From NCBI GenBank assembly GCA_050951565.1, contig JBMNJH010000007.1, forward strand, positions 14,515-78,514: DNA of 64,000 nucleotides, read 5' to 3'. Below are positions 44,824-62,373 of this stretch, in pieces. Source of the DNA: Peptococcia bacterium. Its GTDB lineage: Bacteria > Bacillota > Peptococcia > DRI-13 > DTU073. Each line of letters starts with the position of its first letter. The first letter of the stretch is position 1. The notes below the pieces were generated by a model that made no database searches, was not told the origin of the DNA, and worked only from the letters and a program-made list of their open reading frames with translations. The position numbers were made by a program, and so were the translations under genes.

Positions 44824-46155
44824 CTATTGTATCTGGAAAAGCTCTCCAATACAATATCCCCCGGCAAATTCCCGCAAAAATACGGGGACGATCTTCCCCC
44901 GGAGCAACTCCGGCGACGAAGGAGCGGTAAAACGTACCTTTAAATAATTGGCGCTGCTGCCTTCCCACAGCGTGGCGTCGCTTTGTTCCTCCACCAAAAC
45001 GTCCACCACCCGAAGCAGGAACTTCTCTGCATAGCGTTCTTCCAGTTTTTCGCCTAAACGGAGCATCCTTCTGCTCCGGGCTTCCTTCACCGGAGCAGGA
45101 ATCTGGTCCGGAAAATCCGCTGCCGGTGTGCCCTGCCGTGGCGAATATTTAAAAACATGCAGCCTGCTAAAACCTACCTTCTCCACAAAGCGCCAATACT
45201 CCTGAAAATATTCCTCTTTTTCCCCCGGAAAACCAACCATGACATCGGTGGAAATGGCAATATCCGGCACCGCCTTTTTGATCTCCGTAACAATTTCCAG
45301 GTATTGGGCGGTAGTATAGGGCCTGTTCATGGCCCGGAGAATGGCATCATGGCCACTCTGTAAAGGCAAATGCAAGTGCGGGCAAAAATTCCGGTATTCT
45401 TTCAGCATTCTGATGATGCCCGGCGTAACCTCGGTAGGTTCTAAAGAACTCAAGCGCCACCGCACATTGAAATCAAGACGCAGCAAATCCAGCACCAGTT
45501 TCTCCAGGTTATATTTTTTGCCCAAATCCTGCCCGTAAGCACCTAAATGAATCCCCGTGAGGACAATTTCTTTAAAGCCCTGCCGGATGAGTTTCTCCGC
45601 TTCCTGTAAAGCACTTTCTACCGGTCGGCTGCGCACCGGGCCACGGGCATAGGGGATAATGCAATAGGAACAAAACTGATTGCACCCTTCCTGCACTTTC
45701 AAATACGCCCGGGCCCTTTGGACGTCTTTTTCCGCCGTTATTTCTTCAAAGTCCTTTAAATCCGCGTACTTGCGGACCACAACGCGGGGTTCGTCGGAAA
45801 GCTCTTCCAGCAAATCCACCAAACGGGACTTCTCGTTGGTCCCCACAACCAAGCTCACCCCGGGAATCTTTTGTATCGCGTCGGCATCGGTCTGGGCATA
45901 ACAGCCCGTAACCACCACTTTGGCCCGGGGATTGGTCTTTACCGCCCTCCGGATCATCTGCCGCGACTTGCGGTCCGCAAGATGCGTAACCGTACAGCTA
46001 TTAATCACATAATAATCCGCCTGGTCCGCAAAGTCCACGACCTCGTAGCCCCGCTCCCGAAAGAGGGCGGAAAGGGCCTCCGTTTCGTTTTGATTCACTT
46101 TGCAGCCCAGGGTATAAAAGGCAATCCGCTTGCCCGCGGCTGTTTTTTCGCTCAT
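44824..46155 (-). CDS. mtaB: tRNA t6A37 methylthiotransferase MtaB (YqeV)
   Basis: UPF0004 N domain (IAFYTLGCKVNQNE), radical SAM CNQFCSYC and a TRAM-like C-terminus. ATG 46155 overlaps the rsmE stop by 1 nt. Confidence 0.9.
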   Translation of the reverse strand: MSEKTAAGKRIAFYTLGCKVNQNETEALSALFRERGYEVVDFADQADYYVINSCTVTHLADRKSRQMIRRAVKTNPRAKVVVTGCYAQTDADAIQKIPGVSLVVGTNEKSRLVDLLEELSDEPRVVVRKYADLKDFEEITAEKDVQRARAYLKVQEGCNQFCSYCIIPYARGPVRSRPVESALQEAEKLIRQGFKEIVLTGIHLGAYGQDLGKKYNLEKLVLDLLRLDFNVRWRLSSLEPTEVTPGIIRMLKEYRNFCPHLHLPLQSGHDAILRAMNRPYTTAQYLEIVTEIKKAVPDIAISTDVMVGFPGEKEEYFQEYWRFVEKVGFSRLHVFKYSPRQGTPAADFPDQIPAPVKEARSRRMLRLGEKLEERYAEKFLLRVVDVLVEEQSDATLWEGSSANYLKVRFTAPSSPELLRGKIVPVFLREFAGGYCIGELFQIQ

Positions 46156-46988
46156 TATCCCAAATCCCCCCACGCAAACATGACCAGCGCGATCGACACC
46201 AGGCTGGCGGTCTCGGTACGCAAAATCCGGGGACCAAGCGTGACGGGGATGGCCCCGTATTCCTTCATCCTGTCCACCTCTTCTGCGGCCAAACCGCCTT
46301 CGGGCCCGATGACCAAATAAACCGGCGCGGCAAAAACTTCTCGGCCGGTTGCCTTTTGTTCATTTTGTACGGTTGCTTTTTGCCCTATGGAATCTTGTCC
46401 CGTTAAATCCTGTCCTATTGCTTCTTGTCTCGTTGTATTCTGCCCCATTAAGACTTCCTTAAAGGAGACGCCGCCTTCTTCCCACGGCACAAAAAAGTGC
46501 CGCTTTTGCGGCAAGCGCTCCAAAAACTCCCCAATACTACAGGGAGTCACTACCTCCGGCACGAAGGCACGGCCGCATTGTTTCGCCGCCTCAACGGCGA
46601 TTTTTTGCCACCTTTGGCGGCGCTCTTCTTTCCCCTTAAGCTTCACCACACACCGGGCCGTCTTTAAGGGGATAATGCCCCGTACCCCTAGCTCGGTGGC
46701 TTTTTGAATAATCAGCTCCATCTTTTCCCCTTTGGGAATGCCTTGCACCAGCCACAGCTCTAAAGGGCTTTCCTTCGAGGGCGCAGGCTTCTCCTGCACC
46801 TCCACCAGGGCTTCGTTTTTCCGCAGCGCGGTGATGCGGCCTGCATACTCGTGTCCCACGCCGTCAAAAACCGCCACCACATCACCAATGGTCAAACGCA
46901 GCACCCTGGAAAGATGCGCAAATTCCTGTCCCTGAATCAGCACTTTTCCATTATTAATAGCTTCTTTCGGTACAAAAAATCTATGCAT
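46155..46988 (-). CDS. rsmE: 16S rRNA (uracil1498-N3)-methyltransferase RsmE, with a repetitive ~35-aa insertion
   Basis: MHRFFVPKEAI... and GPEGGLAAEEV are the RsmE motifs. Start moved to ATG 46988. The insertion reads NTTRQEAIGQDLTGQDSIGQKATVQNEQKATGRE. Confidence 0.85.
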   Translation of the reverse strand: MHRFFVPKEAINNGKVLIQGQEFAHLSRVLRLTIGDVVAVFDGVGHEYAGRITALRKNEALVEVQEKPAPSKESPLELWLVQGIPKGEKMELIIQKATELGVRGIIPLKTARCVVKLKGKEERRQRWQKIAVEAAKQCGRAFVPEVVTPCSIGEFLERLPQKRHFFVPWEEGGVSFKEVLMGQNTTRQEAIGQDLTGQDSIGQKATVQNEQKATGREVFAAPVYLVIGPEGGLAAEEVDRMKEYGAIPVTLGPRILRTETASLVSIALVMFAWGDLG

Positions 46989-47002
46989 TTTCCCCTGCTC
47001 CA

Positions 47003-47941
47003 CTATTTAAATTTCCAGACCTGGCCCACCCATTCCTCCTGGCATTGTTCCTCCAGCAGGGTAAGTCCGTTGGCCTCCGCAATAGCCGCCACTTCTGCTT
47101 TTCTTTCCTTTATAATCCCTGCGGTAAGGAAAACCCCGCCTTCTTTCAAGTGTACCCACGCCTGGGGGATTAAACGGAGAATCACATCGGCCACAATGTT
47201 CGCAATAATCAAATCCGCCTTTCCTTCTACTCCGGCCAACAGGTCGCTTTGCCGGACCGTGATGATTTTTTCCAGGCCGTTCTGGACAATGTTCTCCCGC
47301 GCCACCTCCACCGCGACCTGATCGTAATCTAAGGCCAAAACGGAGTGCGCCCCTAAAGTGGCCGCCATCATCGCCAGAATCCCGGTCCCGGTGCCCACAT
47401 CATACACCACGTCCCCCATCCGCAGGTATTTCTCCAGGAGCGCGGCAGACATGGCCGTAGTAATATGGATCCCGGTCCCAAAGGCCATCCCCGGGTCCAA
47501 CTCAATAACCTGTTCCCCTTCCCTGGCCTGATAGCTTTCCCAGGACGGTTTAATCACAATGCGGCTGCCCAGTTTTAAAGGCTTAAAAAAGGCTTTCCAG
47601 GAGTTGGCCCAGTCTTCCTCGTCCAAAATTGCAAGCTTCACCCCGCCCGGCGCTTTTTTCCCCAGGCGGGCCAGGATTGCTTCAAGGCCGTTTTTCAATT
47701 CTTCAAGTTTTCCGGGCAGTTCTTCATTGACAGGCAAATAGCCTTTGACTACCGGGAAATTCTGCTCGAGGATTTCTTCCGGTAATTCAAAGGCGTCCCA
47801 CTGTCCTTCCTCGATCTTGGTCTTGATTAAGGCCGGATCTTCAATCACAACACCGCCGGAACCTAACTCGTAAAAACACTCGGCCACCGCTTCCACCGTC
47901 TCAGGTAAGGCAACTACCGCTATCTCTTGCCATTTCATCAT
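47003..47941 (-). CDS. prmA: Ribosomal protein L11 methyltransferase
   Basis: PrmA N domain plus the SAM motif VYDVGTGTGILAM. Confidence 0.9.
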   Translation of the reverse strand: MMKWQEIAVVALPETVEAVAECFYELGSGGVVIEDPALIKTKIEEGQWDAFELPEEILEQNFPVVKGYLPVNEELPGKLEELKNGLEAILARLGKKAPGGVKLAILDEEDWANSWKAFFKPLKLGSRIVIKPSWESYQAREGEQVIELDPGMAFGTGIHITTAMSAALLEKYLRMGDVVYDVGTGTGILAMMAATLGAHSVLALDYDQVAVEVARENIVQNGLEKIITVRQSDLLAGVEGKADLIIANIVADVILRLIPQAWVHLKEGGVFLTAGIIKERKAEVAAIAEANGLTLLEEQCQEEWVGQVWKFK

Positions 47942-47956
47942 TTTTCTCCCCCAATG

Positions 47957-49132
<1,176 letters not shown>

Positions 49133-49145
49133 TCACTCTCCACAC

Positions 49146-49189
49146 AAAAAGAGTAACCGGCTTCCGGATATTCTCTTTTCCAGAAGCCG
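49146..49189 (-). terminator. Intra-operon hairpin / partial terminator between dnaK and dnaJ
   Basis: CGGCTTCTGGA / TCCGGAAGCCG 11-bp stem (one G-U pair). On the minus strand it is followed by GTTACTCTTTTTG. Confidence 0.35.
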
Positions 49190-49233
49190 TATCCTCTTCA
49201 TTGCGCCTTTAATTCTGTCACAGGGAAAGCTTC

Positions 49234-51126
<1,893 letters not shown>

Positions 51127-51165
51127 TTATCAAGAATTTCATCAAAGAACTTTTAAGCAAAACCT

Positions 51166-51876
51166 TTAACCTTTTTGGACCACTTTCACCATGGAAGCGC
51201 GTAATACTTTATCCTTAAATAGATATCCTTTCCGGAATTCCTCCACGATTTGATTTTCCACCATTCCTTCTTCGGCCGGGGCCTGCATGACCGCCTCGTG
51301 ATAGACCGGATTAAACTCCTTCCCTAGGGCTTCGATGGGCTGCAACCCTTCTTTTTGCAGGATTTCCTGCAACTGCTTGATAATCATCGTGATCCCGGTA
51401 AAAGTTTTCTTAGTTTCTTCACTTTGCTGTTCTAAAGAAGCCATGGCCAAATCAAAGTTATCCAGAACCGGCAACAGCTTCTCAACTAAGCCCATACAAG
51501 AGTATTGGATCCATTCTTCTTTCTCTTTGTTGACCCGTTTCCGGTAATTATCAAATTCCGCGTGGATCCTCAGCAAGCGGTCCTGAGTCTCGGCCAATTC
51601 CGCTTGCAGCGCCTCGATCATCTTTGCGGGGTCTTCCTGCGTTTCTCCGCCTGAGGCCGGGCTTTCTTCGCCCTGTTCCCCCTCACCTGTGGTTGCGGCG
51701 CTTTCGTTTTCTTCCGGCCCTTTTTCTTCATTTATATAATCACGGGAACTTTCCTCCGTTCCCTTCTCTTCGAAAGTCTCGGCGGATGCCTTATTTAAAT
51801 CTTCATGAAAAGTGCCCCTTAATGTATCACTTGAATTTTCACTTAATTTCTTTGCTTTTAGTTTTTCTTCATGCAA
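51166..51876 (-). CDS. grpE: Nucleotide exchange factor GrpE (long acidic N-terminal extension)
   Basis: The C-terminal GrpE core is LLRIHAEFDNYRKR...GKEFNPVYHEAV...GYLFKDKVLRASMVKV. Confidence 0.95.
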   Translation of the reverse strand: MHEEKLKAKKLSENSSDTLRGTFHEDLNKASAETFEEKGTEESSRDYINEEKGPEENESAATTGEGEQGEESPASGGETQEDPAKMIEALQAELAETQDRLLRIHAEFDNYRKRVNKEKEEWIQYSCMGLVEKLLPVLDNFDLAMASLEQQSEETKKTFTGITMIIKQLQEILQKEGLQPIEALGKEFNPVYHEAVMQAPAEEGMVENQIVEEFRKGYLFKDKVLRASMVKVVQKG

Positions 51877-51921
51877 TTTTTCTTCCTCCCTGGTTTTCCT
51901 CCCGCATGTTTTCTTCTTCCG

Positions 51922-53487
51922 CTATTCGTCCTTGGGCGGATGCGCAACAGAGCTTTGCTCCTTTTTCTTGATAATGGTCTCAATGCGCAGCACGGCCTCC
52001 GCGACCTCTCCGGCCGCTTTCAGCGCATATTTTTTTACCAGCACCGGATCATAAATGCCCATTTCCTGCATATCGGCAATTTCTCCGGTATCACAGTTGA
52101 TGCCCAAAGCATCATTCTTCTTTTCCACCTGGGCCGCCACGACCAAACCTAATTTCTCCAGCGGATTAAACCCGGCATTGAGCACAATTTGGGCAAAAGG
52201 CTCCTTTAACGCTTCGATGACACAATCGATCCCGTAAACAGCCATCCCTTTGGCCTGCTGCCGTAAAGCGCTGATTTCACGGGAAATCGCCAGTTCCGCG
52301 GCACCTCCGCCGGCGATAATCCCTCCCTTGACCGCCGCCTGCACGGCCGCAGCCGCATCCTTGGCGATCCGCTCCCGTTCGCCCACCACTTCTTTGGTGG
52401 AAGCTCCTACGATTACCGTAGCCTGGGCTTTACCTTTCCCGCCCATAATGCAAACGTGTTTGAGTTTTTCGTCTAACCGGACCTCTGCCGCTTCTCCCAA
52501 AAGCTGCGCCAGCTCGGCTTCCGTCTTTTTTAAACCGGTGCGTTTCACCATCTTGGCGCCGGTAAACTCCGCCGCCTGCTGCAACTCTTTATGGGGAACC
52601 CGCTGCAGAACCATAATTCCCGCATCGGTGCAAATTTCTTCGGCTTTATCATGAATGCCCCGATCCACCAAAACAAGCCCCACACCCAGCCGAGCGACTT
52701 TCGCCAGATTATCGGCAAACTCCTCCTGCAGCTTCATATACCGGGAAAAACCGGTTTCCGTTCCTAAAGCCTCATCTTCCAATTCTTCCGGTTCTAAAGC
52801 ATCATCGATTACTAAAACCTTTACAGAGCGCAGTTTTTTCGGCATCTCAACATTAACCGGCTCTTTCTCAATGATGACCCCGGACACCACCTGGTTATCT
52901 GCTCCTTCTACCGCCCGGATGTTCTCCGCCAACTTAAAGCCGGGATCCAACAGTTTTTCCTTGCCCAGGACCTGAGCCGCCTGTGTTACTAATTCGGCAA
53001 TGTCCTCATTTTCGCGGGCCGCCACCCGGGCCACGTCCCTGAGCACCGGTTCATCCAACTCGTCAATGGCCTGCGCCCGGCTTTCAAAGACTTGTAAGGC
53101 CTTGCCAATCCCCAGCCTCATTCCTTCTATGACTTTAATCACCGGGACGCCCTTCATGACCTGGTTAACCCCTTCGTTCACCAACGCGCCCGCTAAGATC
53201 GTCGCTGTGGTGGTACCGTCCCCGATTTCGACCTGCTGCGCCTTGGCGATATTGATTAACAGGCGGGCAGCAGGATGATTGATATCCATTAATTCCAGGA
53301 TGGTCACCCCATCATTGGTGATCACCACATCCCCGAACTGATCCATCAGCATGGTATCCAGCCCCTTCGGGCCAATAGTTCCTTCCACCGCTTGCGCAAT
53401 GACCCTGATGGCATTGGCATTAGTCATTAAAGCCGATACATTCTCTTCCTCCCCGGTGCTACGGCTGTTTTGCTGTTTAGCGTTCAT
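51922..53487 (-). CDS. Thermosome/CCT-like (group II-like, so-called group III) chaperonin
   Basis: 521 aa. GPKGLDTML, ITNDGVTIL, GDGTTTATILAG and GGIIAGGGAAELA match the Cpn60_TCP1 group II pattern rather than GroEL (LGPKGRNVV / VAGGGVAL). There is no GGM tail and no groES-like gene adjacent. Confidence 0.85.
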   Translation of the reverse strand: MNAKQQNSRSTGEEENVSALMTNANAIRVIAQAVEGTIGPKGLDTMLMDQFGDVVITNDGVTILELMDINHPAARLLINIAKAQQVEIGDGTTTATILAGALVNEGVNQVMKGVPVIKVIEGMRLGIGKALQVFESRAQAIDELDEPVLRDVARVAARENEDIAELVTQAAQVLGKEKLLDPGFKLAENIRAVEGADNQVVSGVIIEKEPVNVEMPKKLRSVKVLVIDDALEPEELEDEALGTETGFSRYMKLQEEFADNLAKVARLGVGLVLVDRGIHDKAEEICTDAGIMVLQRVPHKELQQAAEFTGAKMVKRTGLKKTEAELAQLLGEAAEVRLDEKLKHVCIMGGKGKAQATVIVGASTKEVVGERERIAKDAAAAVQAAVKGGIIAGGGAAELAISREISALRQQAKGMAVYGIDCVIEALKEPFAQIVLNAGFNPLEKLGLVVAAQVEKKNDALGINCDTGEIADMQEMGIYDPVLVKKYALKAAGEVAEAVLRIETIIKKKEQSSVAHPPKDE

Positions 53488-53533
53488 TTCCGGTACCCTC
53501 CATCACATTATCCCAGATCCCATCACAAACCAA

Positions 53534-54562
53534 TTATTTGACTTTCTTTAAAGCATCAGCCAGGACGGTTGTGAAGAACTCCACCATGCTGACCGATTTG
53601 GAGTACTCCATGCGGGTAGGCCCCAGCACCCCTAAAGTACCAATGGGGTTCCCGTCCACCTCATAAGCGGCAGTAATCAAACTGCAGTTTTTCATTCCTT
53701 CATAAGGATTTTCAGAGCCGATTCGTACGGTGAGCCCAACGCTGGGTCCGGTGCTCAACACTTCCTTCAGCACTCTTTCCTCTTCCAGGAGCTCAAAAAG
53801 CTCCTTCACCTTTTCCACGTTCCTAAACTCCGGCTGATTAAGAATATTCAGGGTTCCTCCCAGGTACACCTTACTCTCATGTTCAACCGACATCACATTC
53901 TCGAGTAATTCAATCACCTGATTCAGAAAGCGCTTTTGATAATCCAGTTCGTTATAGATTTCCTGGAAAATGCCGGCTTTCCATTGTTCCAAAGATAAAC
54001 CACGCAAATGCCGGTTTAAGATATACGACAAAGTCTGCAAATCTTTTTCCTCGAACTGCGTGGGAAAATCCAAAGTGCGATGCTCCACATGGCCGTTATC
54101 CAACACAATAACCAGCACGATTCGATTGTTTTCCAGGGACAATAACTGCACATGCCGCAAAATGTTTTTTCCGTAATTGGGAGCCATAATAATCGCCGTG
54201 TAGTTGGTGAGTTGGGACAAAAGTTTGCTGGTTAACTGGATTAAAGCTTCCGTTTCCCTGACCCGGTCCACTAAAACATCCTGCACATACCTTTTCATGG
54301 AATCGGCCAAGGGTTTTAACTCCATCAAACAATCCACATAATAGCGATAGCCCTGCTCGGAAGGAATTCTCCCCGCCGAAGTATGGGGCTGTTCAATAAA
54401 CCCCAGTTCCTCCAAATCCGCCATTTCATTACGGATCGTGGCAGAACTAACTCCCAACTTGTATTTTCGCGCAATCGTCCGGGAGCCTACCGGATCTCCG
54501 GTAGCAATGTAATCAAGGATGAGAGCCTCCAAAATCCTTTGTTTTCTTTCATCCACTTGCAT
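53534..54562 (-). CDS. hrcA: Heat-inducible transcription repressor HrcA
   Basis: MQVDERKQRILEALILDYIATGDPVGSRTIARKY is the winged-helix N-terminus typical of HrcA. 342 aa. Confidence 0.95.
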   Translation of the reverse strand: MQVDERKQRILEALILDYIATGDPVGSRTIARKYKLGVSSATIRNEMADLEELGFIEQPHTSAGRIPSEQGYRYYVDCLMELKPLADSMKRYVQDVLVDRVRETEALIQLTSKLLSQLTNYTAIIMAPNYGKNILRHVQLLSLENNRIVLVIVLDNGHVEHRTLDFPTQFEEKDLQTLSYILNRHLRGLSLEQWKAGIFQEIYNELDYQKRFLNQVIELLENVMSVEHESKVYLGGTLNILNQPEFRNVEKVKELFELLEEERVLKEVLSTGPSVGLTVRIGSENPYEGMKNCSLITAAYEVDGNPIGTLGVLGPTRMEYSKSVSMVEFFTTVLADALKKVK

Positions 54563-54579
54563 GCTTTTTTAGCTCCTTG

Positions 54580-54606
54580 TTAGCACTCTCCTCTCTTGAG
54601 TGCTAA
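54580..54606. promoter_or_regulatory. CIRCE operator (HrcA binding site)
   Basis: A perfect TTAGCACTC-N9-GAGTGCTAA, 18 nt upstream of the hrcA ATG. Confidence 0.95.
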
Positions 54607-54620
54607 ATACTTTATTTTTA

Positions 54621-54649
54621 AAAATACCATTATGTGTTTTTTTTGTCAA
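54621..54649 (-). promoter_or_regulatory. Candidate sigma-A promoter of the hrcA operon
   Basis: TTGACA (54649-54644), a 17-nt spacer, then TATTTT (54626-54621). CIRCE lies immediately downstream. Confidence 0.5.
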
Positions 54650-54710
54650 CATCCCTTTCCGGATATAAAACCGAGTTATTGTTATTTATTATTGCTATTC
54701 CCTCATTAAC

Positions 54711-55985
54711 CTACAAAAATTCCTGCATAACTAAATTCGCCACAAATAAGCCCTTATCGCTTAAAGCAAGGTGGGTTCCCTTATCCTCTAAAAGCCCTTG
54801 TTGCAGAAGCTTTTCGATGGCTGGCCCGTATTTTTCTTCAATGCTCATCCCGTATCTCCGCCGGAATCCTTCCTTATTAACCCCTGCGCGGAGCCGCAAA
54901 CCCAAAAACATGGTTTCCGCCATGCTCAAAGCCTGGTCAATGTTTTCCTCCTCCGCCAGCGGCAGCTTCCCTTGGACAAGCTGCGCTATATAATCTTCGA
55001 CGGAGGAAGTGTTTTTGTACCGTACCCCCTCAAGGAAACCGGCCGCTCCCGCCCCTAAGCCTAAGTATTCTTCGTTTCGCCAATAGATTTGGTTATGGCC
55101 AGCCTCCTTCCCCGGCAAAGCAAAATTGCTGATTTCATAATGCCGGTAGCCCTGTGCCTGTAAATACTCGATGGCCTCCCGGTACATAACATATGCAGCA
55201 TCCTGGTCAAACTCCCTTAAAAGTCCCTTTTCCACTAAAGAAGCAAAGGGTGTGCCTTCCTCAATCTTTAACTGGTAGACGGAAAGATGCTCCGGATGAA
55301 GCTCCACCGCTTGCCGTAGGCTTTCCCGAAAGCTGGACAAGCTCTGCCCCGGCAAACCATACATCAGGTCCAGGCTAATATTGGCAATGCCCATTTGGCG
55401 CGCTAAAGTAAAGCTTTCCACCACCTCCTGGGCTGTATGGATCCGTCCCAACGCACGCAGTTCCTGCTCCGAAAAGCTTTGTACCCCCAAAGAAAGCCGG
55501 CTGCACCCGGCCTCCTTTAAACACGCCAGCTTTTCCCGCTCGATGGTCCCCGGATTGGCTTCCACCGTTATTTCCGCATCCTCGGGCAGTTGAAAAAGCT
55601 CCCGGAGACGGCTGATTAACAAAAAAAGCTGCTTTCCGGTTAAACTGGTGGGGGTTCCCCCGCCCAGGTACAGGGTTTGACCGGAAAGCCCTTGCTCTGC
55701 CCCATGGCCACCGTCATTATTACCGCCATTACCAGCAGCAATACCACCGCCATTAGCAACGGCATTAGCATTAGCATTAGCATCGGCATTAGCAACAGCC
55801 TTACCACTGGCACGTGTGCCACGATAACGCTGCCGGTAAAGCTCGCCTTCACGAAAAAGAGCGGCCAGATAGGCTTCCTTGTCCTCGCTGCTATATCCGG
55901 CGTAAGAGACAAAATCACAGTAATGGCACTTGGCCTGGCAAAAAGGCACATGGACATAAATGCCGACCTTTTTCTTCGGTTTCAT
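54711..55985 (-). CDS. hemW: Radical SAM heme chaperone HemW (HemN-like, YqeR), with an Ala/Asn/Gly-rich insertion
   Basis: VGIYVHVPFCQAKCHYCDF radical SAM motif, GGGTPT and the HemN_C domain. Start moved to ATG 55985, after GAGGA (the track start at 56000 overlaps lepA). Confidence 0.85.
   Translation of the reverse strand: MKPKKKVGIYVHVPFCQAKCHYCDFVSYAGYSSEDKEAYLAALFREGELYRQRYRGTRASGKAVANADANANANAVANGGGIAAGNGGNNDGGHGAEQGLSGQTLYLGGGTPTSLTGKQLFLLISRLRELFQLPEDAEITVEANPGTIEREKLACLKEAGCSRLSLGVQSFSEQELRALGRIHTAQEVVESFTLARQMGIANISLDLMYGLPGQSLSSFRESLRQAVELHPEHLSVYQLKIEEGTPFASLVEKGLLREFDQDAAYVMYREAIEYLQAQGYRHYEISNFALPGKEAGHNQIYWRNEEYLGLGAGAAGFLEGVRYKNTSSVEDYIAQLVQGKLPLAEEENIDQALSMAETMFLGLRLRAGVNKEGFRRRYGMSIEEKYGPAIEKLLQQGLLEDKGTHLALSDKGLFVANLVMQEFL
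55750..55797. repeat. In-frame hexanucleotide microsatellite inside hemW
   Basis: (GCATTA)x3 is perfect at 55762-55779. It is flanked by the variants GCATCG, GCATTA and GCAACA and an earlier CATTAGCAACG. On the coding strand it encodes ANADANANANAVAN. Confidence 0.8.
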
Positions 55986-55989
55986 CTTC

Positions 55990-57795
55990 TCAATCCTCAT
56001 CGTCCAGGCTCAACACCGCCATAAAGGCTTCCTGGGGGATTTCCACGTTGCCGACCTGCTTCATCCGCTTTTTCCCCTCTTTTTGTTTTTCCAGCAGTTT
56101 CCGTTTGCGGGTGATATCGCCGCCGTAGCACTTATCGATCACATTTTTCCGAAGTGCTTTGATGTTCTCCCGGGCGATCACCTTATTGCCCACGGCGGCC
56201 TGAATCGGTACTTCAAAGAGCTGACGGGGAATCAAACCCCGTAGTTTTTGCACCAGAGCGCGCCCCCGCGGATAAGCCCGTTCCCGATGCACAATAAAAG
56301 ATAGCGCATCAACGATTTCATTATTAATCAGGATATCCAGCTTGACCAGGTCGGACACTTGATAATCGGCCAGTTCGTAATCTAAAGAAGCATAACCCCG
56401 CGTCCGGGATTTTAACTGGTCAAAGAAGTCATAAATAATCTCGCTTAACGGTAAATCATATTTGAGCATCACCCGGCTCGGTGAAAGGTAGTCCATCGTA
56501 ATGAAGGTTCCTCTTTTCTCCTGGGCTAATTCCATCACCGCACCCACATAATCGGTGGGAACCATAATCGTCGCCTGCACAAAGGGTTCGGCAATTTCCT
56601 CAATTTCTTGCATGGGCGGAAGTTCAGTGGGGTTATCAATAGAGATTTGCTCCCCGTTTGTCTTGCGAACACGATAAACCACACTGGGCGCCGTCGTGAT
56701 CAATTCCAGTTTATACTCCCGCTCCAGCCGCTCCTGCACAATTTCCATATGCAACAAGCCCAGGAAGCCGCAGCGAAAACCAAAGCCTAAGGCCACCGAT
56801 GTTTCCGGCTCGTATTGCAGCGAGGCATCATTAAGCTGCAGCTTTTCTAAAGCATCCCGCAGGTTTTCGTAATCACTGGTCTCCACGGGATAAAGGCCGC
56901 AGTACACCATGGGTGTAGCTTTGCGGTAACCGGGCAGCGGGGCCGGGGCCGGATTGGCGGCTGTAGTAATGGTATCGCCCACCCGGGTGTCCCCCACATT
57001 TTTAATGCTGGCCGCCATGTAACCGACCATTCCGGTGGGAATTTCGTCGACGCTCTTCATCTCGGGCACAAAAACGCCCACTTCCGTTACCTCAAAGGTT
57101 TTCCCGGTGGACATCATTTGAATGACGTCCCCTTTTTTGAGAGAACCGTTGACCACCCGGAAATAGGAGATGGCCCCTTTATAGGAATCAAAATGGGAAT
57201 CGAAAATCAAGGCTTGCAAAGGCGCATTGGGATCTCCCTTGGGTGCCGGGATTTTGTGGACAATCGCCTCCAGGATTTCTTGGATGCCGATTCCTTCCTT
57301 GGCGGAAGCCAAAATCGCCTCCCTGCAGTCTAAGCCAATGACCTCTTCAATTTCCTGCCGCACCCGTTCCGGCTCCGCCCCGGGTAAATCGATTTTATTA
57401 ATCACCGGAATAATCTCCAGATCATGCTCTATGGCCATGTAGACGTTGGCCAGAGTTTGCGCCTCAATCCCTTGCGCCGCATCTACGACCAAAATCGCCC
57501 CTTCACAGGCCGCCAGGCTCCGGGAAACCTCATAGGTAAAATCCACATGACCCGGTGTGTCAATGAGATTAAGCATATAGGTTTCGCCGTTATCCGCCGT
57601 GTAATTCATGCGCACCGCTTTTAGTTTGATGGTAATGCCCCTTTCCCGTTCCAGGTCCATTTTATCCAGGACCTGTTCCGTCATCTCCCGGGCGGTCAAG
57701 GCGCCTGTAGCTTCCAGCAAACGGTCGGCCAGCGTTGATTTGCCGTGGTCGATATGAGCAATTATGCAAAAATTACGGATATATTTTTGCTCCAA
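55990..57795 (-). CDS. lepA: Translation elongation factor 4 (LepA)
   Basis: [25 protein letters not shown], and the NKID motif (PVINKIDLP), plus the LepA C-terminal domain. TTG start 10 nt after AAGGAGG. Confidence 0.95.
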
Positions 57796-57918
57796 TCTTG
57801 TATTGCCTCCTTAAAGATCGCTTGTCAACACCATCCAATTCTATAAGTATATCGGAAAAAAAGCACATCAGCAAGATTTTGGTTTTTATCCTTGAGCAGA
57901 TGCGCCATGGCGAATCCT

Positions 57919-58257
57919 TTAACTAAATTCCACAAACCCCACTAAAATATCTATTACTTCTTCTAATATCTCCTTTGGTACCTTTTCATAATAAGATGCC
58001 TTCCGCGCATAAATATCTAAAGCTTTAACCTGCTCACACATTATAACGCCTGTTGTTTTAGTAGTTTTATCCAATTCCACGTGTAACGGAAATTTTCTAT
58101 TCGTGTTAGTAATCGGACATACCATCGCCATATTCGTGAATTGATTATATGTGTTATTACTAACAACCAGGGCAGGCCTTTTCCCGCTTTGTTCATGGCC
58201 TGCCTGAGGGTTAAACTCTAAAAAGATAATATCTCCTTGTTGCGGTATATACTTCAT
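57919..58257 (-). CDS. mazF: Type II toxin, MazF/PemK-family endoribonuclease
   Basis: PQQGDIIFLEFNPQAGHEQSGKRPALVVS ... VCPIT ... CEQVKALD follows the MazF fold pattern. Its start overlaps the mazE stop by 1 nt. Confidence 0.85.
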   Translation of the reverse strand: MKYIPQQGDIIFLEFNPQAGHEQSGKRPALVVSNNTYNQFTNMAMVCPITNTNRKFPLHVELDKTTKTTGVIMCEQVKALDIYARKASYYEKVPKEILEEVIDILVGFVEFS

Positions 58258-58496
58258 TAGAACACCTCATTACCTTCCGGGGCTCCTGTATCCCATTCAC
58301 TACACTGATAATCTCCCTTGTATTCAGCAATCCTTTCCTGCAAAGTCTTATGTTTTTTCACAGGAACAATAATTAAATTGCCATCTTGAACTTTTATCTC
58401 TACCGGATCATTTTCATTAAGCCCAACCATCTCAAGAATAGGCTTCGGAATCCTTATTGCCCGGCTATTCCCCCACTTTTGGACTGTGGCGTACAT
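58257..58496 (-). CDS. mazE: Type II antitoxin MazE (AbrB/SpoVT-type)
   Basis: MYATVQKWGNSRAIRIPKPILEMVGLNENDPVEIKVQDGNLII is the canonical MazE N-terminal domain. ATG 58496 follows GAGGTG. Confidence 0.85.
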   Translation of the reverse strand: MYATVQKWGNSRAIRIPKPILEMVGLNENDPVEIKVQDGNLIIVPVKKHKTLQERIAEYKGDYQCSEWDTGAPEGNEVF

Positions 58497-58515
58497 CGAC
58501 ATCACCTCTGTTTAG

Positions 58516-58544
58516 AGTATATACAAAGTATCTACATTTGTCAA
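58516..58544 (-). promoter_or_regulatory. Candidate sigma-A promoter of mazEF
   Basis: TTGACA (58544-58539), a 17-nt spacer, then TATACT (58521-58516). Confidence 0.55.
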
Positions 58545-58594
58545 TTTTTATTTTTCCCTTGCCTGGAAACCCATCTTCTTTAAGTGGAGGAAGT

Positions 58595-58765
58595 TCACCA
58601 TAAATCCAGGTATGTTTTAATTGCTGTATTAACCTGTACCTTGATTTCCTCTGAGTCAATAATACCGCATCTTTCCCTTAGCCGTTCCTTGGCAATAGCC
58701 CTGATCTGATGGGCCATGACGATTGGATCTTGGGGATTTACATATACCTTAACAGATGAAAAAAT
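58595..58765 (-). pseudogene. 5'-truncated MazF/PemK-like toxin remnant (C-terminal ~50 codons only)
   Basis: The frame is open only from the TGA at 58768-58766. It reads IFSSVKVYVNPQDPIVMAHQIRAIAKERLRERCGIIDSEEIKVQVNTAIKTYLDLW*. This aligns with the C-terminal half of MazF/EndoA (…LLEQIRTIDKQRL…). The N-terminal half and a plausible start are absent. Confidence 0.6.
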
Positions 58766-58777
58766 TCATACTGCACC

Positions 58778-58824
58778 ATAAAAATAACCTTTGCAGACCA
58801 CTGTTTCCAAGACCTACAAAGGTT
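58778..58824 (-). terminator. Rho-independent terminator of the SLH-protein gene
   Basis: AACCTTTGTAGGTC / GGTCTGCAAAGGTT 14-bp stem (with G-U pairs). On the minus strand it is followed by ATTTTTAT. Confidence 0.65.
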
Positions 58825-58874
58825 TCTTTTTCATTCATCCATTATTCTCCGCTTACTACGCCAAGTTCCATGCA

Positions 58875-61800
58875 TTATGGACTACTTCTGCCAGCAAGGT
58901 AGTTCTGCAGAACTTCAGCAGCGGTGAGAGCTTTGTTGTAGACACGGATATCGCCAATTACCCCGACGAATGGATACCCAACCCTGTTAGGAATGATTTC
59001 TCGTCCAATAATTAACGGTTCAGTTGATTCATTTATTATCCCATCGGTATTATCTTTTACTACCGTTAATTCACCATTCACATAAATTTTGACAGTATTA
59101 TCAGCATAGGTACCAACTAAATGTATCCAGCCTGATTCAGGCAAAACATAGTGGGAATCAATATAATTCCATTTTAGGGACCCGCCTTCTTCCCCGTTGT
59201 TTACCCATAAATCAAAGTGGGCATATCTATTTTGGGGACGTACATTAAGCCTATATGCATAGGTTTTACACATAACAGTGGACGAATCCAAAAAATAATC
59301 CCCTATTTTTAACCATGCTTCTAAGGTAAGATTATCAGTTATATCAAGGCTTTCATCATTTCCACAATCCACATAATCATCCTTAGTGCCTTCCACTCCA
59401 TTAAACTGCAACCCTTCGTCCGTCCAGCCACTGCCTTCCGCATGAGCAAAATTATTCAGTGTACCATGATTCCCATTACCGCTCAAGTCATACCAAATAT
59501 CACTTGCCATATATTTGCCAATACTGCCATCAAGATAGAGAACACAGTTTTCAAGTACGGGAATTTCGGAATCAGAAGCTACAACCTTAACCCAGCAAAT
59601 TGCTTCCTTGCCCCCATCCTCTGTGGTGACGGTGATTTTCGCCGTCCCTAACGCTACGGCCGTCACTTTACCGTTATCATCTACCGTGGCAATAGCCGTG
59701 TTATCACTTGCCCACGTCACACCTTTATTCGTTGCGTTAGCAGGTTCAATAGTCGCCATTAAAGTTTCCTCTGTTGTTATTCCTTGTAAAAACAGCACCG
59801 TCTTATTCAAACTTACCCCAGACACGGGAATTCCCCATTGCGCATATACGGTAATGTCACTCGTTACTACCGTATCTGCATCAAACTCAGCACCGGTCCC
59901 GTCAGCTTCCGTATTCCAACCGGCAAAAACATATCCCTCTCTCGTAGGTTCTATTGGCAAAGTCGCCTACAGTACTACCATGTTCTACAGTCATGGTAAG
60001 TGGATCAGCTTCTGTATCCCCACCGTTCTTATCAAAAGTGACAGTATAAAGAATTACTTCCAATTCTACAGCCACCGTTACAGCTTCCGCAGGCATCGTA
60101 AAGGTATATGTTTTTCCGGCTTCCGTTTCTTCTGTTGTAATTATTTCTCCGCTTGCCTTGGTTACGGTAATCGCCTTAAATCTCTTCCCGATCTCAAGAT
60201 TAGTAATGTTTATGGTAACCAGATCCCCTGCTTTTGCTTTGGGCTTATCTGCCGTAACCTCCGCTGTCCCCCCACTTACAGTAGCTTCCACGGGATAAGT
60301 GGAAATTATGGTTATCTCCTGCTCCACACTTTTTCCGCTGGCGGTATGGGTTATGGTCACTTTGATATTTTCTGGCGATAATACTGCACCATCCTCTGGG
60401 TTCGTGCTTATCCCTTTTGTCGAAAAATCGGCAAAAGCAATGTCCTCAGTGCTTTCATCTGTTCTGGTCAAGGTAATGACCAAGCCGGTAAGATCTAAAG
60501 GCTCCCCTTCAATGTATGTGGTTTTCGTTGGCGCTGTTTTTATAGCTATCCCGGAAACAGTGGCTTTCACAAAGTTAATTAGATAAGTCTGGGTACTGCC
60601 GTTTTCCGCCGTTACCAGCACGGTGGCGGTATTATTCGCCGAATCTAATCCTGTGGCCTGGGTTACCGTTACCCGGGCTTTGGCATGGCGAGCCGTTGCC
60701 TGTACCACCGGTACTGCTGTCGTCTCATTCGATAAAATAATTTCATAGAATAAGACATCGGGAGCAAAGCCTTGCACTGTTTCCCCGTCGATAGTTAAAT
60801 CCTTTAAAGCAGCATCGTTGCTTTTCTTTTTCTTGGTTTTCCCGCCAATAATGCCAGGCTCCACGACTACTCCGTCCACACTGGCCTCAAGCATATTCAG
60901 AGACCCGTTCCCCTGCACGGTAGCAGGAGCATCAGCGGTCATCGTATTTATACTCGCCTGATTGGTCAGCTTAATCTGAGCCTCCTGGGCTGTGGAAGCC
61001 AGATTAAGATTGGCAATACTGCCTCTTTGCAAAGCAAGTTGCGCTGAGGCGGCCTGTACTTCTACATTATCAAAATTACCCAAAAGTTCCACGGTGATAC
61101 CCGGTTCTGTTTCTTGTGAACCAGTGTTTTCTTGTGTTCCTGTCCCTTCCTGGGAAGTATCTACTTGTGCTTGCGTTCCTTGTGAAAGAACTTGCTGGTT
61201 ATTCACAACCACCTTGGTGAAGCCGGAACCGGTTAACTCTTCCTCTTCCAGTCTGGCTGGTGTCCTGGCTTCTAAGATGCCAACCGCCGTATCCCCTTGC
61301 GCCAGCACACGGACCAGCTTGCGACTGGGCACATTAACCAAAACTGCGCCTAAGGTGGTATTCCGCAACTGAATACTATCCCTGCCGCCACCCGCTATTT
61401 TCGTGGTCCCCTGTACGGTGACATTTATTAAGGTAACATCTCCCTCCCCGATTCCTTCGGTGAGATAGAGGGTGCCGGTGATGGTGATGTTCTGCAGGGT
61501 AACCCCGGGTGTGCTGATAGTCGCGTTGCCCTCAATTACTACCGTTCCCTGAAAAGGTCCATAGGTACCGGCACGGTTATATAACATGCCAACGGCACGA
61601 TCTAAGACGGCAAGCGCTTCCGCCCGGGTAATTGGTCGATTGGGCTGAAAGCTACCGTCAGGATAACCGCTCATATAGCCGCCCTTCACGGCCGCGGCAA
61701 TGGCGGCTTCGCTCCATGCCGGGATCTGGTCTTGGTCGACAAATTTTGCAATAGTCCCCGCACTTTGAACATCGTTATGGGGCGGCAATATCCGGGCTAA

Positions 61801-62283
61801 AACAGTCGCCACTTCCTGCCTCGTGATCGGATTCTGCGGCTTTGCTGTTCCATCCGGGTATCCTCCAAGGTATCCCACGGCCGCCGCCTGGGCGAATTCG
61901 ACCGCATACCAGTCTGTTGCCGCTACGTCATGAAAAGTGACTGGATTAACTGAAGAAGCAGAACTATTCAGCTTTTCGCCTACCATCTCTGCATAGCCAA
62001 AAGCACGGTTAACCAAGGCCAGAAACTCTGCCCGGGTAATGGGGCTGTCCGGTCGAAAGGTCCCGTCGGGGTAGCCCCCCGCCAGCTCACGGGCTGTCCA
62101 GGATCTTATCTCCTTTTCCGCCCAATGCCCCGTTATATCAGTAAAGGAAACCCGCCCTGTCTCTGTATAAGCTACAGGTGTAGATGCTAGTTCCGCCTGA
62201 ACAGAAAGGCAGGGAAAGCAGTAATTTATAACAAAGGTGAAAAATAGGAATAAGCATATGTACAGCCATCTTTTCTTTTGCAT
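58875..62283 (-). pseudogene. Large multidomain SLH cell-surface protein split by a frameshift near 59957-59966
   Basis: Signal peptide MQKKRWLYICLFLFFTFVINYCFPCLSVQA. Three SLH domains (…GYPDGTFRPDSPITRAEF…, three times). Then a beta-helix-like region, a cadherin-like domain, Ig-like domains, a Listeria-Bacteroides (Flg_new) repeat, Big_2 and a C-terminal LamG/ConA-like domain. The Flg_new repeat YTVTFDKNGG...VGDFA | LPIEPTREGYVFAGWNTEADG is split between track ORFs 59902-62346 and 58875-59960. Confidence 0.7.
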
Positions 62284-62373
62284 TAAAGGTGCTAACCTCC
62301 TTAATGCTAAAATGCTATTTTTTCCCATTATATTATTTCTTTTCATAGAATTTTCGACTTGTTTTAAAGCTAT

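Follow-up and report, generated by a model that had tools for sequence, protein, structure and literature searches.

A group III chaperonin gene between hrcA and grpE in the heat-shock locus of an uncultured Peptococcaceae bacterium

Introduction

The dnaK operon of Bacillus subtilis is heptacistronic, contains internal promoters and gives rise to a transcript that is processed; Homuth et al. are said to have established its structure in 1997. Group III chaperonins, the thermosome-like branch of the Cpn60/TCP-1 proteins in bacteria, were reportedly first described by Techtmann and Robb in 2010, and their characterised prototype is Ch-CPN from the cultured thermophile Carboxydothermus hydrogenoformans. 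Here we describe a gene of this class that lies between hrcA and grpE on the minus strand of a 64,000-nucleotide (nt) stretch of contig JBMNJH010000007.1, from an uncultured Peptococcaceae bacterium known from metagenome assemblies. This whole stretch is called the window below, and all positions refer to it.

Ch-CPN assembles as a 16-mer, has its lid built in, hydrolyses ATP and refolds proteins without a co-chaperone (PMC5635000). The traits of group III given by An et al. (2017) are a lid with deletions relative to group II chaperonins and the loss of the nucleotide-sensing loop in its group II form, which is six residues longer (PMC5635000). Two residues of Ch-CPN were assigned specific roles, Arg155 as a contact of the gamma-phosphate and Leu439 as a pivot between the rings (PMC5635000). 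A resurrected group III ancestor, ACIII, is an ATPase with double octameric rings (PMC12696368). The position between hrcA and grpE is typical of the group III clade (PMC5635000, PMC5220055, PMC5904260), and reviews describe group III genes as HrcA-regulated (PMC5904260). GroEL/GroES of Firmicutes are likewise controlled by HrcA and its operator, the inverted repeat that controls chaperone expression (CIRCE) (PMC5904260), and bacteria with a group III chaperonin reportedly also carry GroEL/ES (PMC5220055).

An earlier note on this DNA, made from its letters alone, had presented the gene as an archaeal-type chaperonin in the dnaK operon, and had proposed a search with the Pfam profile Cpn60_TCP1, a phylogeny and an inspection of the lid in a predicted structure as ways of checking this. 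Our follow-up leads us to conclude with high confidence that the open reading frame (ORF) encodes a functional group III chaperonin inside an otherwise canonical Firmicute heat-shock locus.

Results

An intact chaperonin gene

The chaperonin gene occupies positions 51922..53487 of the minus strand and encodes 521 amino acids; its assignment to group III draws on family scans, solved relatives, a tree, signature insertions/deletions (indels) and residues, and a structure model with its fold match. It starts with an ATG, with GGAGGG lying 8 nt on the 5' side, and the protein ends in ...KKKEQSSVAHPPKDE, without a GGM repeat. Coordinates and translation agree with the earlier description of a 521-residue ORF lacking a GGM tail and separated from hrcA by 46 nt and from grpE by 45 nt. 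All four motifs quoted in the earlier note as hallmarks of group II (GPKGLDTML, ITNDGVTIL, GDGTTTATILAG and IIAGGGAAELA) are present in the translation, but they are ATP-site motifs of the whole family, and GDGTT and GGG are found in GroEL too; the motifs themselves thus stand, their specificity for group II does not.

The residues of the ATPase site are kept, with D59, D90, D377 and G393-395 aligning to D52, D87, D398 and G414-416 of GroEL. A 40-sequence family alignment (A1) has 150 invariant columns, ATP-site residues among them, and by definition the window protein is intact in every one. The locus has a GC content of 0.517, and both its GC content and its GC skew are like those of neighbouring intervals, so that composition shows no sign of recent acquisition. 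Between the window and four other assemblies the gene differs by 0-1 nucleotides and the protein by no amino acid at all; over the operon as a whole, four assemblies, the metagenome-assembled genome (MAG) GCA_002385735.1 among them, match the window at 99.8% identity. Contig DGEB01000015.1 of this MAG agrees with the window in every base of hrcA, the chaperonin gene, grpE and dnaJ and departs from it by a single base in dnaK.

The protein belongs to the group III clade

The search with Cpn60_TCP1 (PF00118) gave 362.7 bits, residues 30-509 covering profile positions 1-489 of 490. Among the NCBIfam thermosome models, TIGR02339 scored 298.5 bits (cutoff 671.1), NF041083 287.9 (cutoff 400) and NF041082 282 (cutoff 450). 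The best NCBIfam GroEL models reached 157-186 bits, in two stretches, with the equivalog TIGR02348 at 157 against a cutoff of 582. Since every NCBIfam score is far under its cutoff, the window protein belongs to neither of the two curated families, thermosome or GroEL.

Against sequences of the PDB, phmmer placed 9RWQ on top (662 bits, E = 3e-198, single-residue gaps only), ahead of Ch-CPN (5X9U/5X9V, 487 bits) and the ancestral group II chaperonin ACII (9RWP, 292 bits); thermosomes followed at about 230 bits and CCT subunits at about 180 bits. The PDB labels 9RWQ 'Ancestral Group II Chaperonin (ACII)', whereas the paper that accompanies the deposition identifies it as ACIII (PMC12696368). The scores side with the paper, and judged from them the molecule name in the PDB is misleading.

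A metagenome scan with alignment A1 yielded 30 loci with chaperonins 44-73% identical to the window protein and 50 loci at 30-34% identity. Together with 39 database homologues, Ch-CPN, E. coli GroEL and an Armatimonadota groES-groEL locus (L001), whose GroEL is 54% identical to that of E. coli and served as a second group I outgroup, these loci provided the set for a neighbour-joining tree (121 sequences, 515 columns, 100 bootstraps) rooted on E. coli GroEL. The window protein, Ch-CPN and 68 more sequences formed a group III clade of 70 in 100/100 bootstraps, and 49 thermosome-like sequences formed a second clade with the same support; the L001 GroEL fell outside both. The phylogeny proposed in the earlier note therefore groups the window protein with Ch-CPN, outside GroEL and outside the thermosome-like clade. 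Its median identity is 62% to group III (range 44-81%), 30% to group II (28-32% to the 49 thermosome-like sequences) and 27% to GroEL.

Group III signatures and predicted structure

The segment containing the nucleotide-sensing loop measures 31 amino acids in the window protein and in 69 of the 70 group III sequences, against 37 in 48 of the 49 group II sequences; in pairwise alignments the gap in the loop takes the form of 5+1 residues. Within this shortened loop lies Arg158 (codon at 53014..53016, minus strand), which aligns with Arg155 of Ch-CPN, is Arg in 70/70 group III sequences and is invariant in A1. Likewise invariant in A1 is Leu443, the counterpart of the pivot Leu439, found as Leu throughout the 70 group III sequences and mostly replaced by Ile in group II.

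The apical helical protrusion, the built-in lid, was located from the model and from segment lengths at residues ~228-268 (52684..52806, minus strand). The lid segment has 54 amino acids in all 70 group III sequences, 58 in 48/49 group II sequences and 41 in GroEL, which makes the lid of the window protein 4 residues shorter than in group II and its segment 13 longer than in GroEL. An AlphaFold2 model built on alignment A1 (mean predicted local distance difference test score, pLDDT, 88.1; predicted template modelling score, pTM, 0.84) has helices at 238-242 and 244-266, forming the protrusion between strands 218-227 and 269-274. The lid, whose inspection the earlier note had proposed, was seen here in a predicted rather than experimental structure. 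In a Foldseek search of the PDB the closest match to the model was closed Ch-CPN (5X9V_A, E = 5.1e-52, template modelling (TM) scores 0.87/0.91), followed by open Ch-CPN (5X9U_A, E = 3.5e-47) and then by group II chaperonins at about 1e-36, with TM ~0.8 to those of Thermococcus and Methanococcus.

The heat-shock locus

The earlier note had described a single perfect CIRCE upstream of hrcA, and our pattern search located it at 54580..54606, between the promoter-like site and the hrcA ribosome-binding site, as a perfect inverted repeat, TTAGCACTC-N9-GAGTGCTAA. It has 0 mismatches and is the sole match in the 64-kb window when up to 3 mismatches are allowed (0.02 expected by chance). A sigma-A-type promoter-like site, recognised by its match to the consensus (TTGACA-17 nt-TATTTT with a TG before the -10), lies at 54621..54649 on the minus strand; a scan of 13 kb (45500-58500) gave 12 such sites, among which this one, with 10 of 12 hexamer positions matched, ranks first. 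The -10 hexamer lies 14 nt upstream of CIRCE and the hrcA ATG 17 nt downstream of it, and in the 5' leader RNA the operator forms a 9-bp hairpin (z = -3.9).

Downstream of the operator, and all on the minus strand, come hrcA (53534..54562; 342 amino acids; TIGR00331 372 bits, cutoff 197; PF01628 242 bits), which encodes the heat-inducible repressor that binds CIRCE, the chaperonin gene, and grpE for the nucleotide exchange factor (51166..51876; 236 amino acids, TTG start; PF01025 165 bits; NF010738 168 bits, cutoff 137). These are followed by dnaK for Hsp70 (49234..51108; 624 amino acids; PF00012 865 bits) and dnaJ for Hsp40 (47957..49123; 388 amino acids; domains DnaJ, DnaJ_CXXCXGXG and DnaJ_C). 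The first ~75 residues of GrpE form an acidic N-terminal extension of low complexity, PF01025 covering residues 75-234, and the C-terminal tail of DnaK is of low complexity and rich in Gly, Ala and Gln. Next in line, likewise on the minus strand, are prmA (47003-47941), rsmE (46155-47003) and an mtaB-like radical-SAM gene (44824-46173), identified by the Pfam families PrmA, Methyltrans_RNA, and UPF0004 plus Radical_SAM. They are separated by 15 nt or overlap, and by analogy with the heptacistronic B. subtilis operon are probably distal members of the dnaK transcription unit.

The neighbourhood as a whole reads lepA, hemW, hrcA...dnaJ, prmA, rsmE, mtaB-like, a HIT-family gene and rpsU. It shares with the B. 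subtilis-type operon, as known generally, the flanking order lepA-hemW-hrcA...grpE-dnaK-dnaJ-prmA-rsmE-mtaB and a sigma-A promoter followed by a perfect CIRCE in the leader, and differs from it by one extra cistron, the chaperonin gene, between hrcA and grpE.

The gaps are 46 nt between hrcA and the chaperonin gene, 45 nt between the latter and grpE (counted from the grpE TTG), 57 nt between grpE and dnaK and 110 nt between dnaK and dnaJ. In the first three, terminator and promoter scans and RNA folding gave nothing above background, the RNA structure in the 46-nt and 45-nt gaps being insignificant (z = +0.75 and -0.82). Folding of the dnaK-dnaJ gap gave a strong hairpin followed by a U-rich tract (49142..49206, minus strand; -39.3 kcal/mol, z = -4.3, matched by 0 of 200 shuffles), which a simple terminator scan had missed. 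This element may act by attenuation, by termination or by stabilising the mRNA, and would split hrcA-cpn-grpE-dnaK from dnaJ and the distal genes. Given the hairpin and its U-rich tract, the main stress transcript may, speculatively, be hrcA-cpn-grpE-dnaK with partial read-through.

Scans of the whole window with Rfam, at the gathering threshold, and with ARAGORN returned no matches; the Rfam result means that the window holds no known RNA thermometer or leader. The earlier note had seen no groES-like partner, and tblastn searches using the GroES and GroEL of E. coli and the L001 GroEL indeed found neither a groES nor a second chaperonin gene in the window.

Gene context in relatives

The earlier note had named this operon slot as the known position of bacterial group III chaperonins, and the hrcA-cpn-grpE order is conserved in related loci. 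Of 30 group III loci, 29 have hrcA as the immediate upstream neighbour on the strand of the chaperonin gene, the remaining contig having only 86 nt upstream; the immediate downstream neighbour is grpE in 24 of the 27 with informative downstream sequence. A perfect CIRCE is found in 24 of the 25 loci that include the region upstream of hrcA, in most cases 42-64 nt ahead of the first hrcA codon aligned (44 nt in the window). No groES was found within 5-10 kb in any of 34 group III loci (L004-L033, L084-L087), and at the one real GroEL locus, L001, groES is directly upstream. Neither hrcA, grpE, dnaK nor CIRCE was found at any of the 50 thermosome-like loci. The adjacency of hrcA and the chaperonin gene is conserved more strictly than any other pairing in the operon, and it extends to distant relatives, one 34% identical to the window protein with the order hrcA-cpn-grpE-dnaK-dnaJ-prmA-rsmE (P0157) and one 37% identical with hrcA-cpn-grpE-ftsZ (P0147).

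Individual loci show variations on this arrangement. In L017 (3818-7195) hrcA-cpn is followed directly by dnaJ, with neither grpE nor dnaK between them, and L029 has hrcA-cpn and no CIRCE at up to 3 mismatches. The chaperonin gene of L021 is followed by about 2 kb of low-complexity, highly repetitive sequence without a grpE match, probably explained by a repeat-rich N-terminal extension or a faulty assembly. The chaperonins P0157-P0228 (loci L088, L089, L092, L090 and L093) are ~480-510 amino acids long and 28-35% identical to the window protein; their indels are those of group III and they have an Arg where the window protein has Arg158, but most are without the pivot Leu. A subclade formed by P0158, from a Cyanobacteriota MAG, and P0162 has the group III indels and adjoins an aconitase gene outside any dnaK operon; this divergent, Cyanobacteriota-associated subclade has left the dnaK operon. 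P0148 (1057 amino acids) and P0189 (1047 amino acids) are of double length, with two chaperonin-like stretches each, and are apparently tandem-fused thermosome subunits; the database name of P0148 is 'thermosome subunit alpha [Candidatus Freyarchaeota archaeon]'.

Other features of the window

Positions 57936-59396 (and 58875-62346) are strain-specific, with no counterpart in the four otherwise 99.8%-identical assemblies (L084-L087). This stretch includes a mazEF-type toxin-antitoxin pair, made up of a PemK/MazF toxin (57919-58257, minus strand) and an 82-residue AbrB/MazE-like ORF (58257-58505, minus strand), and the C-terminal Laminin_G_3 portion of an SLH surface protein, which is different here. 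The surface protein is represented by two overlapping ORFs in the window (814 and 361 amino acids), is encoded by a single gene in L084 (1169 amino acids) and is absent from the MAG contig L086.

The hemW gene (54711-56000, minus strand) contains a tandem repeat at 55708-55812, with a period of 6, 12 or 36 nt, which appears in the N-terminal radical-SAM region of HemW as the low-complexity insert ANADANANANAVANGGGIAAGNGGNNDGG. Called HemW lengths differ between assemblies (424, 429 and 431 amino acids), which suggests that the repeat is variable; differing start-codon calls could contribute.

Discussion

Our analysis places the chaperonin of the window beside Ch-CPN, with which it shares a clade, 49-50% identity in a nearly gapless alignment over 503 residues, the shortened loop with its Arg (158 here, 155 in Ch-CPN), an equal lid length, the pivot Leu (443 and 439), the best structural match and the same position in the dnaK operon (PMC5635000, PMC5220055). 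It differs from Ch-CPN in about half of its residues and in its C-terminal tail, and, unlike the protein of a cultured thermophile, it comes from an uncultured bacterium seen in metagenome assemblies. The highest-scoring solved relative, ACIII, is a computational, consensus-like ancestor rather than a natural protein, and its apical domains are unresolved in the structure.

With archaeal thermosomes and CCT, the window protein has in common the three-domain fold, the built-in helical lid, a probable independence of GroES and the ATP-site motifs. It is unlike these group II proteins in its identity of about 30% to them, its separate clade, its scores below the NCBIfam thermosome cutoffs and its gene context, which none of the 50 group II-like loci shares; group II loops are longer by 6 residues and have a Lys, the lids are 4 residues longer, the pivot is an Ile and the subunits exceed it by about 25 residues. 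GroEL belongs to the same superfamily and has the same ATPase residues. It is set apart from the window protein by the lack of an apical protrusion, a GGM tail, 7-mer rings and a need for GroES, at 27% identity.

These comparisons leave little to the readings that would place the gene in another family. A genuine archaeal group II thermosome subunit, brought in by a recent horizontal transfer and landed by chance in the dnaK operon, would account for the thermosome models being the best NCBIfam matches and for a fold with TM ~0.8 to the Thermococcus and Methanococcus chaperonins. The best of these matches, however, has 298 bits against a cutoff of 671, and identity to the 49 thermosome-like sequences falls well below that to group III, whose clade includes the protein in 100/100 bootstraps. 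The protein also lacks the 6-residue loop insert and the 4 lid residues found in 48/49 group II sequences, and the base composition of its gene matches that of the neighbouring intervals. Moreover, the insertion point is common to many lineages, so that any transfer must have been ancient, ancestral to the group III clade. Scores, tree, indels, composition and the conserved insertion point effectively refute a recent transfer, which we regard as very unlikely. A divergent group I GroEL paralogue, still working with a GroES encoded elsewhere, could be argued from the significant partial matches to GroEL models (best 157-186 bits) and from an identity to E. coli GroEL (27%) little under that to group II. 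It is contradicted by the 157 bits obtained with TIGR02348 against a cutoff of 582, by the 13-residue apical insertion that corresponds to the helical protrusion, for which GroEL has nothing at that place, and by the missing GGM tail. Equally opposed to it are the absence of groES from the window and from within 5-10 kb of the 34 group III loci, when the L001 GroEL has one, and the predicted structure, which fits group III and group II and not group I; refuted by sequence and structure tests alike, this reading has next to no probability.

Two further readings accept the family and question what has become of the gene. That it is a decaying relic, no longer functional, is hardly credible: redundancy is conceivable, group III carriers having been reported with GroEL/ES too (PMC5220055), but the ORF is intact and of the family-typical 521 residues, the 150 invariant columns are complete down to the ATP site, the structure model is confident and the identical protein recurs across many independent assemblies. 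On these grounds we rejected a pseudogene. Somewhat more room, at a still low probability, is left for a group III gene that sits outside the HrcA/CIRCE transcript, through a promoter of its own or RNA processing, so that its level is uncoupled from heat shock and from dnaK. The internal promoters and processing known generally from the B. subtilis operon offer a precedent, the strong dnaK-dnaJ hairpin indicates that the unit is not uniform, and downstream partners vary, as in L017 (hrcA-cpn-dnaJ) and P0147 (hrcA-cpn-grpE-ftsZ). On the other side, the coding strand of the 46- and 45-nt gaps lacks any site resembling a promoter or terminator, RNA folding of these gaps is not significant, the window has no second CIRCE, same-strand adjacency of hrcA and the chaperonin gene holds in 29/30 loci and in distant relatives, and the literature gives HrcA control of group III genes (PMC5904260).

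Nothing contradicts our assignment of a heat-regulated group III chaperonin, which stands within the following limits. The tree was built by neighbour-joining on Kimura distances rather than by maximum likelihood, and its group II set consists of unannotated metagenomic sequences called thermosomes on the strength of identity (30-34%), length and gene context. The searches for groESL and CIRCE covered the 64-kb window only, and a weak internal promoter within the 46-nt gap between hrcA and the chaperonin gene is possible on sequence alone. For the oligomeric state and the independence of a co-chaperonin, the basis is a single characterised prototype, from a thermophile, that is 49% identical to the window protein.

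From the arrangement of the locus, the chaperonin gene would be co-transcribed with hrcA, grpE and dnaK and induced by heat. In the absence of stress HrcA, the product of the first gene, would bind the single CIRCE just past the sigma-A promoter and repress the whole unit. A build-up of unfolded proteins would lead to loss of HrcA activity, upon which hrcA, the chaperonin gene, grpE and dnaK would be transcribed together, with read-through into dnaJ and beyond. By analogy with Ch-CPN, identical chaperonin subunits would come together as a double ring (2 x 8), in which ATP binding would shut each cavity with the built-in apical helical lid and enclose a non-native client for folding; as the lid is built in, a partner of the GroES type would be unnecessary. 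We infer that groESL coexists with this system elsewhere in the genome.

A further proposal, suggested by synteny, is that in these bacteria HrcA is kept active by the group III chaperonin and not by GroEL, or that this chaperonin takes clients directly from DnaK/DnaJ, a transfer on which An et al. have speculated (PMC5635000). We consider this unlikely on present evidence; if true, hrcA-cpn-grpE-dnaK would work as a proteostasis thermostat complete in itself, with the sensor, the chaperonin and the Hsp70 system titrated jointly.

Intact and in its usual place, the gene is a typical representative of a family that is known, uncommon and little studied. As the earlier note had said, the class is not new: class, operon position and HrcA control were published between 2010 and 2018 and structures in 2017 and 2025. 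The exact protein is also public, in NCBI as 'TCP-1/cpn60 chaperonin family protein [Peptococcaceae bacterium]' (for instance HHZ17587.1, on 68 contigs), so that nothing here is novel. The same note's picture of a small set of Firmicutes holds for the class and for its operon position, but the set is no longer tiny. At 61% identity or more the family has over 120 clusters (90% identity), from Peptococcia, Desulfotomaculia, heliobacteria, Thermincola, Thermosinus and others, and it comprises about 25-30 full-length clusters at 50% identity. What the locus adds is one more well-preserved example of this understudied class from outside Carboxydothermus, together with synteny counts that measure how tightly the chaperonin gene is tied to hrcA.

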